From NCBI GenBank assembly GCA_905202595.1, contig CAJKSP010000002.1, positions 13,870 to 77,869 of the forward strand: a stretch of DNA of 64,000 bases, written 5' to 3'. This DNA comes from an uncultured Sutterella sp. GTDB taxonomy: Bacteria; Pseudomonadota; Gammaproteobacteria; Burkholderiales; Burkholderiaceae_F. Every line of letters begins with the position of its first letter. The stretch's first letter is position 1. Positions 3,510-6,482 of this stretch are shown piece by piece. The notes under the pieces were generated by a model that did no database searches, was not told where the DNA came from, and was given only the letters and a program-made list of their open reading frames with translations. A program made the position numbers and the translations under genes.

Positions 3510-3691
3510 AGCGAACAGTCCTTCAAAAATGGCCGTGCGGCCGCGGCCTGCGGGAGAGGCCGGCCGGGCAGGCACGGCGATGGGAAAAAAGTGTAGCAAA
3601 GGAGGATTAATGCGCTCTATTGCTTGAAGGACTGACAGTCATAGGCCCTGATCTTTCAACCAGGGCCAGATGACAATGTGAAGGTCTACTT

Positions 3692-6164
3692 TCAGAATAA
3701 ATAACTCAAGCGGCCGGACATTAGCCACGTGTCTGCCATTTTGTTGCCGACAGTGCGTTCAAGGTCAAATTGAACTTTCAAGACATTCTTCCAAGCGAAA
3801 GAGCCTCCAACGCCAAAATTGCACCACGTGTCGAGGTCGCCCCAGACTTTTTTAAGTTCATCCTGAGGTGCAAGAAATTCGGCGTTTTGACCGCTCGTAA
3901 ATTGGTGAAGAACATCGCCGCGTACATAAAACTCGCCGAACATATTTGCGCCGTTCAGCTGTTTGCCAGTTCTCAAGCCTGCACGCCCAATGAGACTCGT
4001 GTCGCTGTCGGCTTGAATTTTGATGCCGCGCTGCACGCTGTAGTCGAAGCTGTCCAAATAGGTAGCCTGGATCTGCAACTGCGGTTCAAAGAAAATGCCT
4101 GTGGCTGAGTCGGTCAGCGTATGGCCGACTTCAGCGGAGATGGACGCATAGTTTTGTTCAAACTCTCCGGATGTGCCATAGACATTGCCAACGGCACTGA
4201 TTTCGGAAGAAATGCGGCCCAGGCGACCGACAATATCAAGATAGTTTGCTCCGACAGTCAGGGTGTCATACAAGGCAAATTCGTAACGCTTCATATTGCC
4301 TGAACCTCGAACATCAAGAAGGTCCGTATCGCCTTCGGTATAGCCAAACCAAGCGCCGGCAGCGTTAGTGTCGGTCAGTTGCCTTTCAATGCCGAGTGTG
4401 ATTCCTGTGCGATCCCAGCGGTACTGATTGGCGGCGCCGGAGCTTCCGTGATTAACGCGGATCCAAAGGCCATGCAAAGGCGAGTCCGGCTGACGAATCG
4501 TTTCTGAGAGACGACGGTCGTGACGCTCCATTTCGACAGCGGCGTTGTAGCTGGCCCAACCTGCGCCCGTTATGCCTTGCGTAGCTTCAGATTCATGGAG
4601 CGTTACCCGATAGATATACCAATTTTGGCCATTTAAATAATCAGAGGGATTAACAATAAATGTTTTAGATCCATTTGGATCTTCAGCATGTTCGAGTGTA
4701 GTAGATCGCTCCCAATATTCGTTGGCTTCAATATCTTCTTCAGTAATGGTTTTGCTGGCTATGTCGAGCTCATAATTCCAAAGCCCATCTCCTTCAAGAT
4801 TTTCTTTAGAAGCAAATTTAATGTGAGAACCCTCTTTAACTAGTGCAAATGTGAGTGTATTCTCTGTGGAAATTGATTTTAGGAGATGGAGTTGATATGG
4901 TTCGAAATAATGTGTGGATTCAGTGTTGTTAATGCCTGATCCGGATTCAATAAACAGCATATCGGAATTGGCTTTGTTTTCGGCATCCAGATCCATTCTG
5001 AAAATGCCGCCGCTTCCTTGGAGATTGCCGATGATGACGTAATCATGCTTATATTCCGGATGCATTGCATAATCATATTCTCCATTATTCATTGCATCCC
5101 AGAGGCCGATTTCTTTCCAGGTATTCTGAAGATTTTCGTCAAAAAGATTGATGATTCCGCCATTTAAAGTGACTTCCGAGATTCGTTTGGGAATAGCCCA
5201 GTATGGCGTATTGTTTTTATAGCGGACATAAGCTAGAGAAAGGTAAGACCATTGAGCGCCGTCTTCAAGGGTAATGTTGAACTTGTCTCCCGCGGAAGAT
5301 CCATTGTCCCATGTGGAATTCTGCCAAGTTTTCTCATCGCCGAACCAGTAGGAATCGGTTCCGGATAGCGTTATGGAAATGGTGTTGGCAGCGTTATCGC
5401 CTGTACCTTCGCTATTCGGATCATCCATCATGTCAAAGGAGCCGACAAGCTGATTTTGGGTAGAGAGAAAAGTCACTGAAGAGCCTTTCTTGGCGCTGAT
5501 GAGATCGGGCTGACCGGCTAAAACCCAAAAACGTGCCGTGCCGCCAGCTTGTCCGATCACTGCACTAGATTGACTGCTTAAGTAAAGCCCATTGGCGCCA
5601 ATTGATGACAACTGTTCTTCATTGGAAAGGTTGTGACGAACTTCAACGGAAATATTTTTCCCTGTGATGTTCAACTGACCCTTTGAGGCGGCATATAAAG
5701 CATATGTCCCGACGTCACTTGAAAAGTTGGGACTGATGGATTCGGCAGTTATGTTGAAGTCGAGATCGTTTGTTAAATTCAGCGTGCCGCCGTTCGTTGC
5801 TTGAATAGAGAACTGGCTATGTGAGATGAGCGGCTTTTGATTAATTTTAAGTGGAGAGTTGATGGTTTCATTATTTTGAGCGCCATCAACTGTTATTAAA
5901 TTGAAACTAGGCTGGTGCTGGTGGGATGCATCTATGCCATTTCCATTGATGTGAATCCATCCATTCTGATCGGGATCAGATAAAGAAACTCCTGTGCCGA
6001 AGGAGATGGCTGCACTGCTTTCTTGAATGGCGCCAATGCTAAATAAGGCGACAAGTACTGCATGCGGGAGATGTCTATGTTTTAAGAAATGGGTTGCAGT
6101 ATGAGCTGCACGTGTGTGAAAGTGGGGGGGGGGGTATTAACGCCATATCTGAATCTGTTTTCAT
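3692..6164 (-). CDS. autotransporter (type Va) adhesin-like protein with C-terminal beta-barrel, N-terminus frameshifted at a poly-G tract (candidate phase-variable gene or pseudogene in OFF phase)
   Basis: The track ORF 3692..5674 (660 aa) ends ...TWLMSGRLSYLF, an autotransporter beta-domain with aromatic C-terminus. The same frame stays open, stop to stop, up to about 6136 with no ATG/GTG/TTG. That stretch encodes a signal-peptide-like segment (..FLKHRHLPHAVLVALFSIGAIQESSAAIS..). An ATG at 6164-6162 (MKTDSDMALIPPPP) is in the +1 frame, and the two frames meet at a run of 11 G (+ strand 6124-6134). Local GC is about 40% against about 66% genome-wide. Confidence 0.8.
6124..6134. repeat. homopolymeric G11 (C11 on coding strand) tract inside the 5' end of the autotransporter gene
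   Basis: Read directly from the sequence: ...gtgaaagtgggggggggggtattaa... On the coding strand it encodes a poly-Pro (CCC) run. Removing 1 nt or adding 2 nt would fuse the ATG at 6164 to the passenger/barrel frame. Confidence 0.75.
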
Positions 6165-6482
6165 CGAAGTAATAGGAATATGGATGCCTTAAATATACTA
6201 AGCGAATTATTTATATATCTAGCGATTAAATATTATGGGCGATCTGATTAAAAGAAGAAAGCGGATTTTTAGCGTATTCGATATTCAATGATGAAATCAA
6301 TAATCTTTTTCCTCAATTAGGTGATGTCAACAGAAATTAATTCCTGGATGGACGACTGCGGTCGCCGAGGCGTAGCATCGAAGCGGCTCGAGGCCGGCAG
6401 CCCGGGAACATGCCCGCCGCCGCGCTCGAGCGCAGCAGAATCATGACGGCGCCTCGCGCGCCGCAGAGAGGGCCTGGAAGCC

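Follow-up and report, generated by a model that had tools for sequence, protein, structure and literature searches.

A start-proximal poly-C tract in a low-GC autotransporter gene of an uncultured Sutterella: a probable contingency locus with relatives across gut Sutterellaceae

The DNA analysed here (the window) is a stretch of 64,000 nucleotides from an uncultured Sutterella sp. (contig CAJKSP010000002.1, positions 13,870 to 77,869). Close to its beginning, on the minus strand, lies a gene for a predicted autotransporter, in which the start codons are separated from the rest of the coding sequence by a run of eleven cytosines. An earlier note, made from the letters of the sequence, had regarded this run as a candidate slipped-strand switch in front of a surface adhesin gene, currently in the OFF state. 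The tract, the gene behind it and the family to which the gene belongs are the subject of the present analysis; the coordinates of the features are given in Table 1.

On the minus strand, two ATGs lying in one frame (6164-6162 and 6146-6144) precede GCG TTA ATA, after which come the 11 C's (6134-6124, G11 on the plus strand); all coordinates proposed earlier for the run, between the ATG at 6164 and the autotransporter body, hold when the sequence is read. Translation in the frame of the ATGs gives MKTDSDMALIPPPPLSHTCSSYCNPFLKT and is terminated at 6077-6075. This open reading frame (ORF; 6075..6164) does stop early, as had been claimed, its length being 29 amino acids (aa) and not 28 codons; from either ATG the product reads ...MALIPPPPLSHTCSSYCNPFLKT up to the same TAG. 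The adjacent frame, hereafter the main frame, is open for 815 codons from 6136 to the stop at 3692-3694, also in agreement with the earlier reading, and is closed just upstream of the tract by a TAA at 6139-6137. With ten C's (or 13), the ATG at 6146 or 6164 continues through CCC-CCC-CCC (Pro-Pro-Pro) into an 823-aa preprotein, whereas with C9, C11 or C12 the frame logic ends translation after 23-29 codons. The fusion at ten C's, likewise anticipated, is borne out by sister assemblies with C10, which carry an 823-aa gene call. The window copy has C11 and its consensus state is thus OFF, a statement that describes the assembly consensus and not necessarily every cell.

The earlier note placed the start at 6164. 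That ATG does open the frame, yet in one sister assembly (L109) it is replaced by CTG while the ATG at 6146 is retained; because of this replacement, and because short leaders are the rule in the family (see below), translation more probably begins at the ATG at 6146 (MALIPPP...). As the two ATGs lie in one frame, the ON/OFF logic is unchanged by the choice between them. A different matter would be a start downstream of the tract, which would make tract length irrelevant. A gene caller did put a GTG start inside the hydrophobic core of the signal peptide in a close relative (L001; P0001, MIVALFSIG...), but where this relative has its GTG codon the window reads GTA-CTT. Moreover, the main frame contains no ATG, GTG or TTG from the tract to codon 154, the first being a TTG at 5674, 154 codons in, which extends the 150 start-free codons counted before. 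The hydrophobic segment begins at residue 17 after the tract with no alternative start ahead of it, and the scan of main-frame start codons found none downstream of the tract that would retain the signal peptide, which a later start would remove and which an autotransporter requires. In the wider family, an alternative start between tract and hydrophobic core is rare: only 8 of the 67 loci, representing 6 distinct alleles, have one, and it is always a TTG. A mis-placed start is, on this evidence, scarcely credible.

The C11 tract is the sole G/C run of at least 7 in the whole window. Composition-preserving shuffles gave an expected 0.34 matches to G9, with three or more matches in 2 of 100 shuffles; since the window has a G+C (GC) content of 65%, and in view of this shuffle result, the length of the tract alone is only mildly improbable and is not decisive. 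It is by its position, in a local context of 41% GC and exactly at the junction of start codon and signal peptide, and by its conservation in homologues that the tract is not a chance occurrence. Around it, no structured RNA or riboswitch was recovered: Rfam gave no match at gathering threshold anywhere in the window.

The product encoded by the main frame is, as far as domain matches and structural models can tell, a classical type Va autotransporter, with a signal peptide, a β-helix passenger, a linker helix and a barrel ending in an aromatic residue. Directly after the tract and a basic stretch comes a 12-residue hydrophobic core, AVLVALFSIGAI, followed by QESSAA and ISFG; the segment that the earlier note had called signal-peptide-like (FLKHRHLPHAVLVALFSIGAIQESSAA followed by IS) is thus present, the assignment as a signal peptide relying on hydropathy and visual inspection only. 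A start codon is connected to it in C10/C13 alleles only. At the C-terminus, Pfam finds the autotransporter domain (PF03797, E=1.5e-29) and NCBIfam the corresponding model TIGR01414 (E=2.2e-33). The full-length AlphaFold model, built with 42 homologues, has a mean predicted local distance difference test score (pLDDT) of 84.5, with a disordered N-terminus (pLDDT <50), a long beta-rich passenger, a helix at residues 516-533 and a C-terminal barrel. Foldseek pairs the barrel with the translocators of EspP, BrkA, Hbp, NalP and AIDA-I (target template modelling score, TM, about 0.8).

The passenger modelled on its own (pLDDT 89.4) forms a right-handed β-helix. Its Foldseek matches in the PDB are all weak, pertactin, Ag43, the Hbp stalk and UpaB being the best (TM 0.2-0.42, 11-14% identity); for pertactin (E=3.8e-4, TM 0.32-0.42) the match amounts to a weak resemblance of fold. 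Neither a Pfam match nor a sequence match to any PDB structure was obtained for the passenger, Pfam finding the barrel only. A protease or IgA-protease passenger (S8 or S6) was considered and rejected, on the grounds that Pfam returns the barrel only, that there is no sequence match in the PDB and that the modelled β-helix is uninterrupted; Hbp, IgA1 protease and Hap match the passenger through their β-helix stalks only. Of the term 'surface adhesin' used in the earlier note, the autotransporter part stands on PF03797, TIGR01414, the full-length model and the structural matches of the barrel, and 'adhesin' is what one may infer from the β-helix fold: the passenger is best called adhesin-like.

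Evidence that the tract varies comes from assemblies of the same locus, recovered by exact-protein look-up with the flanking citrate synthase, nitroreductase and malate/lactate dehydrogenase and with the truncated gene product. The tract reads C10, with the 823-aa ON gene call, in a 124-kb contig of 22x coverage (ENA ERZ1309949; L107, L113 and L121) and in Logan ERR1430432 (L108). It reads C11 in ENA ERZ27266122 (L126), which is OFF like the window, and C9 in Logan ERR13267592 (L001), which is 99.0% identical and OFF in the other wrong frame. One C is the sole difference between L126 and the C10 assemblies over 5.5-6.8 kb, and none of the alleles observed is disrupted in the other 815 codons. 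A fixed tract length, the outcome that would have spoken against switching, is therefore not what is found: C9, C10 and C11 all occur, C10 and C11 on otherwise identical DNA, and this is the pattern that would be expected of a slipped-strand switch. Two more assemblies stop at or near the tract. L109 (ENA ERZ1304526) ends at its first C (window 6134), leaving the tract unreadable, and L110 (ENA ERZ27266119) ends 37 nt from it (window 6087) with a 12-run read, which arises through a T-to-G change at 6135. Such breaks and miscalls, also described for the tracts of nalP and mspA (PMC3723659), are only a hint of switching. Gene callers are affected too: the same gene is on record as 823 aa (ON; 3 contigs), as 579 aa (OFF, from an ATG at 5431; 3 contigs), as 788 aa, with a GTG inside the signal peptide as start, and as a 121-aa fragment.

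Several observations weigh against a switch. Polymorphism among assemblies is not proof of switching within a clone; all tract lengths given here are assembly consensus, and homopolymers of 10-11 are error-prone. Some of the near-identical assemblies may share related or even the same read sets, and the difference between C10 and C11 could partly reflect the choice of the assembler, which would still imply mixed or ambiguous reads. Over 5.5-12 kb, the sole substitutions between the window and L113, L121, L108 and L126 are three transversions, at 6055, 6074 and 6092, all 32-79 nt from the tract on its downstream (coding) side, two of them altering signal-peptide residues (R/S, L/I). Their clustering beside the tract may be a sign of poorer sequence at this spot of the window; they could stem from an artefact next to the long homopolymer, from a short patch of recombination or from hypermutation confined to this site. 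Finally, inspection of the sequence before the ATGs at 6164 and 6146 revealed no clear Shine-Dalgarno motif, and the promoter match upstream of them is weak; in the promoter and terminator scan such sites are not above shuffle expectation, which makes the match suggestive only.

The same observations bear on a simpler explanation, namely that the source truly has C10 and an intact gene, C11 being a sequencing or assembly artefact. Two sister assemblies do read C10, exactly one base off the window at the tract, and the nearby transversions, together with the breaks and miscalls of L109 and L110, mark the spot as hard to assemble. Against this, the independent assembly L126 also has C11, and has it without the three substitutions; the truncated 579-aa call was recorded from 3 contigs; and the tract is the sole indel between the window and L113 in 12 kb, so that the window is not generally indel-prone. 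A miscount, an outcome for which the earlier note had allowed, is thus possible for the window itself and yet unlikely. Even if it were true there, the tract would stay length-polymorphic across strains and across the family.

The family provides the broader evidence. A protein search returned 304 relatives, many with PPP or xPP just ahead of the signal peptide, and DNA of homologous loci was gathered from genome scans (25 loci) and human-gut metagenomes (80 more). The genome-scan loci all stem from metagenome-assembled genomes (MAGs) of Sutterella, Duodenibacillus or Aphodousia, at identities of no more than 52%. An ATG, a short leader, a run of C7-C12 (modal length C9) and a signal peptide follow one another in 67 loci, the window and L001 included, a handful of them being contigs that both collections returned; 32 of the 67 are in frame (ON) and 35 out of frame (OFF). 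The leader between ATG and tract has 1-10 codons, typically 3-5, as in MIKIAPPP, MLIATPPP and MIDTPPP. Among these loci are seven near-identical pairs of an ON and an OFF allele: L031 (C9) and L032 (C10), L043 (C9) and L042 (C8), L045 (C9) and L047 (C10), L048 (C10) and L050 (C9), L066 (C8) and L065 (C9), L036 (C10) and L054 (C9), and L096 (C9) and L019 (C10), the ON allele being named first.

At least 11 additional loci carry G7-G11 within, or shortly upstream of, the gene's 5' end, and ten of them form one orthologous group in which 7, 8, 9, 10 and 11 are all represented. In this poly-G sub-family the run lies on the coding strand at the position of the poly-C tract (ATGACCAAACGATATTACCC..Gn..; L053, L058, L061, L069, L071, L072, L076, L081, L090 and L103, also L007, L060 and L077), and lengths 7-11 occur among near-identical alleles. 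The poly-G group was taken from a second automated classification; the C-tract counts were not, since several ON alleles, whose ORFs extend far upstream without a stop, had been mis-scored there as tractless. Shortened or interrupted poly-G versions are seen in L055, L075, L082 and L084. A check of homologues for the same tract, as suggested in the earlier note, thus finds it, as C7-C12 or G7-G11, on a large scale: about 80 loci of human-gut Sutterellaceae have it, and almost all members of this large family possess a 5' tract of this type.

What is conserved in this position is the homopolymer itself and not a PPP or polyproline motif, because CCC is a minor proline codon elsewhere in the family genes (24% of 889) and CCC-CCC is found in none of their 20 Pro-Pro dicodons. 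The tract is kept at the DNA level across paralogues that share just 36-70% protein identity, and autotransporter-gene 5' ends hold 71 of the 83 G/C runs of at least 8 in 676 kb of homologous loci. Single MAGs or contigs contain 2-4 family genes in mixed states; L032 and L057, for instance, share a contig, and L052, L083, L092 and L101 come from a single sample in which their coverage is equal.

The other 12 G/C runs, of 8-12, lie outside autotransporter 5' ends, several of them at a position that is conserved, roughly 0.7-0.9 kb downstream of the gene stop; examples from outside the 5' ends are L090 5466-5477, L053 5675-5683, L055 5567-5576, L076 5299-5307, L077 5281-5289, L047 7105-7115 and L042 892-901. 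The run in L090 has no convincing gene attached and is spanned only by a 136-aa minus-strand ORF.

Variants of the start-proximal arrangement occur as well. In one subgroup, two ATGs in different frames stand right before the tract (ATGCGATATG-Cn), about 10 nt upstream, both out of frame with one another; C9 (L057, L086 and L097) is in frame with the first ATG and C10 (L049, L079, L089 and L104) with the second (MPPPQ...). This makes two tract phases out of three nominally ON, and the subgroup may have a three-level rather than a two-level switch. L012 and L051 have an interrupted tract (ACCCTCCCCC) where their close relatives L026 and L010 carry C8 or C10, and may represent a 'locked ON' variant. 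In L005 (2891-2900) and L023 (2808-2818), a G10-G11 run lies about 60-130 nt upstream of the ATG, outside the coding sequence, and by analogy with Campylobacter capC it may be a switch of the promoter or 5'-untranslated-region type.

With about half of the family alleles nominally OFF, it might be asked whether OFF is leaky, RNA-polymerase slippage or ribosomal frameshifting on the C-run making the tract tune the level of product with no strict ON/OFF. Long homopolymers can cause transcriptional slippage; the phenomenon is, however, best documented for A/T runs, and nothing in the present data requires it. In Neisseria, moreover, NalP protein is detectable only at in-frame tract lengths (PMC3723659). 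A leaky OFF state is accordingly regarded as very improbable.

The gene sits on a small accessory island that holds nothing else apart from the region upstream of it. The flanks of the island have a GC content of 0.66-0.67, in line with the 66% of the host, against 0.47 for the gene. Six sister assemblies are island-free (L112, GCA_964314545.1; L114, GCA_902497235.1; L115, L116, L117 and L123), their flanks being 98-99% identical. In these the dehydrogenase gene adjoins citrate synthase, and a GC-rich, partly palindromic spacer of 56-57 bp replaces the island (4289-4345 in L112). The comparison with the sister strains revealed neither target-site duplication nor repeats at the junctions, and the island looks more like an allelic replacement by flanking homology than like a transposition. 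In other hosts, GC content was measured at 16 loci: in 14 of these the family gene falls short of its flanks by 3-9 points (median about 5), whereas in L007 and L017 gene and flanks are level. The nearest homologues (65-67% identity) reside in 57-62% GC contexts. A tblastn search of the other loci with those ORFs of the window that lie outside the island and have at least 200 aa gave no match. The idea of an imported low-GC gene, already put forward in the earlier note, is supported by the accessory distribution, by the gap of about 19 GC points in the window and by the contexts of the homologues: the gene is compositionally foreign and came with its switch.

Accessory genes may also be on their way out. 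A decaying pseudogene, in which a gene gained not long ago would have been inactivated by an irreversible frameshift and would now be disappearing, would fit the absence from several sister strains and the OFF state of C9 and C11, two of the three tract lengths seen; lineage-specific autotransporter decay is documented in Campylobacter (PMC7168839). Yet the 815 codons are intact in all alleles, ON and OFF alleles occur on identical backgrounds, and conservation of the tract at the DNA level against codon usage is the opposite of neutral decay. Decay is for these reasons given very little credence.

Table 1. Coordinates of the features at the autotransporter locus, numbered along the window
Feature	Position	Strand	Basis or remark
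Accessory island, 2,736 bp, GC 0.47, holding only the autotransporter gene and its upstream region	3603..6338	.	sister-strain comparison
Weak sigma-70-like promoter match, TAGATA-18-TATATT	6192..6221	-	9/12 consensus; AT-rich region upstream of the ATGs
Two in-frame ATGs and short leader	6144..6164	-	sequence; CTG in L109; family layout
C11 homopolymeric tract (G11 on the plus strand)	6124..6134	-	sequence; C10, C11 and C9 in sister assemblies
OFF-state truncated frame, 29 aa from ATG 6164 or 23 aa from ATG 6146, TAG 6077-6075	6075..6164	-	
Predicted signal-peptide region, main frame	6008..6123	-	basic n-region (HFHTRAAHTATHFLKHRH), h-region AVLVALFSIGAI (about 6026-6061), c-region QESSAA, predicted cleavage before ISFG
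Three transversions (6055, 6074, 6092)	6055..6092	.	alignment to sister assemblies
Passenger, predicted right-handed parallel β-helix, about 478 aa	4574..6007	-	AlphaFold 2 pLDDT 89.4; Foldseek
Predicted α-helical linker and C-terminal autotransporter β-barrel, end ...SGRLSYLF, stop 3692-3694	3692..4573	-	PF03797 span about 3761-4456

Taken together, the locus is very probably a contingency locus, in which a type Va autotransporter would be turned ON and OFF by slipped-strand mispairing at the poly-C tract. The case for it is made by the reading frames, by the variation in tract length and by conservation across the family, while the switching rate, its reversibility and the coupling of expression to the tract are inferred from better-known systems. 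A G/C homopolymer of hypermutable length (at least 7-8) is placed such that a change of ±1 toggles a full-length against a truncated product (823 aa at C10, 23-29 aa at C9 or C11), and near-identical genomes are polymorphic at it (C10 and C11 within 5.5-6.8 kb of identity, C9 in a 99% relative). The slipped-strand reading of the earlier note thus gains support both from the assemblies and from the polymorphism of the family. In the proposed mechanism, mispairing would change the length of the tract by one base. At C10 or C13 the start codon would be joined to the signal peptide and the protein exported and displayed; at other lengths translation would abort after 23-29 codons. By analogy with NalP/MspA, bapC/tcfA and capD, the gain or loss of one C during replication is expected to be a high-frequency, reversible event, a clonal population would always be a mix of cells with and without the surface protein, and host pressure in the form of antibody, phage or niche would select among ON and OFF cells.

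On a wider scale, it is on balance likely that human-gut Sutterellaceae and their relatives possess a previously undescribed phasome. Such a phasome would comprise at least 2-4 paralogues per genome, with a start-proximal C/G homopolymer in nearly every member that is held by DNA-level selection against codon usage, some members having two of three phases ON (ATGCGATATG-Cn), and horizontal transfer would carry the switch along with the gene, in the present case to a host of 66% GC. If so, a prevalent commensal lineage linked to mucosal immunity would have combinatorial, heritable surface variation at its disposal. Among gut commensals, the invertible promoters of Bacteroides dominate what is known of phase variation, and switching driven by repeats has been described chiefly in pathogens of mucosal surfaces (Neisseria, Haemophilus, Campylobacter and Bordetella, for example). 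The present loci indicate that Sutterellaceae-type gut bacteria may run a battery of repeat-switched autotransporters.

There are practical consequences too. In human gut metagenomes ON alleles are about as frequent as OFF alleles, and calls of gene presence in metagenomes overstate what is expressed. The ON/OFF states of strains could instead be read directly from reads and compared with immunoglobulin A (IgA) coating, inflammation and phage pressure. Automated annotation hides the switch: genes with such tracts can be expected to be mis-annotated often, as truncated genes or pseudogenes, callers having given 579, 788 and 823 aa for one and the same gene. Along the same line, the frameshift in the window should be neither 'corrected' nor annotated as a dead gene.

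Among the closest known systems is bapC of Bordetella pertussis. Its annotated G11 is out of frame, and the loss of one base restores the reading frame; this G11 is OFF in strain Tohama I, and the length of the tract differs from strain to strain and inside single colonies (PMC1891110). The claim of the earlier note that a high-GC host would make such a switch notable does not survive this precedent. In common with bapC (and tcfA), the Sutterella gene is a predicted classical autotransporter with a 5' coding G/C homopolymer, the Bordetella genes being those of a 67% GC Burkholderiales host. The differences lie in the protein family and the passenger, and in the family-wide rule of a tract between start codon and signal peptide, which has no counterpart there; the Bordetella genes are core virulence genes of native GC content, as opposed to the low-GC island described here, and within-culture variation of bapC was shown experimentally, whereas the variation at the present locus is among assemblies.

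In Neisseria meningitidis, NalP is expressed only at 7, 10 or 13 C's; its tracts range from 6 to 15 across isolates, about half of which are OFF, the gene is absent from some isolates and the tracts sometimes break contigs (PMC3723659). NalP and MspA share with the Sutterella gene a coding poly-C tract that is ON at every third length, in the case of NalP with the very phase found here; they differ in having serine protease passengers instead of a bare β-helix, and they belong to nasopharyngeal pathogens rather than gut commensals. Campylobacter capC and capD are autotransporter families with a poly-G upstream of the start (capC) or in the coding sequence (capD), in which intact and inactive copies are distributed by lineage and the inactivation of capC did not track tract length (PMC7168839). 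The Sutterellaceae family shows both arrangements, L023 and L005 having their G10-11 upstream of the ATG, although the Campylobacter genes form an unrelated sequence family in Epsilonproteobacteria.

Pertactin, Ag43 and UpaB have the right-handed parallel β-helix passenger that is predicted here; the structural similarity is weak, however, and the present passenger matches no Pfam or PDB sequence. Ag43 itself is phase-varied by Dam/OxyR and not by a repeat. In the literature, no report of repeat-mediated phase variation and no study of autotransporters was found for Sutterella and its relatives. To sum up, the mechanism is a classical, textbook one; what is new is the taxon in which it is met and the scale, encompassing a whole family of genes.

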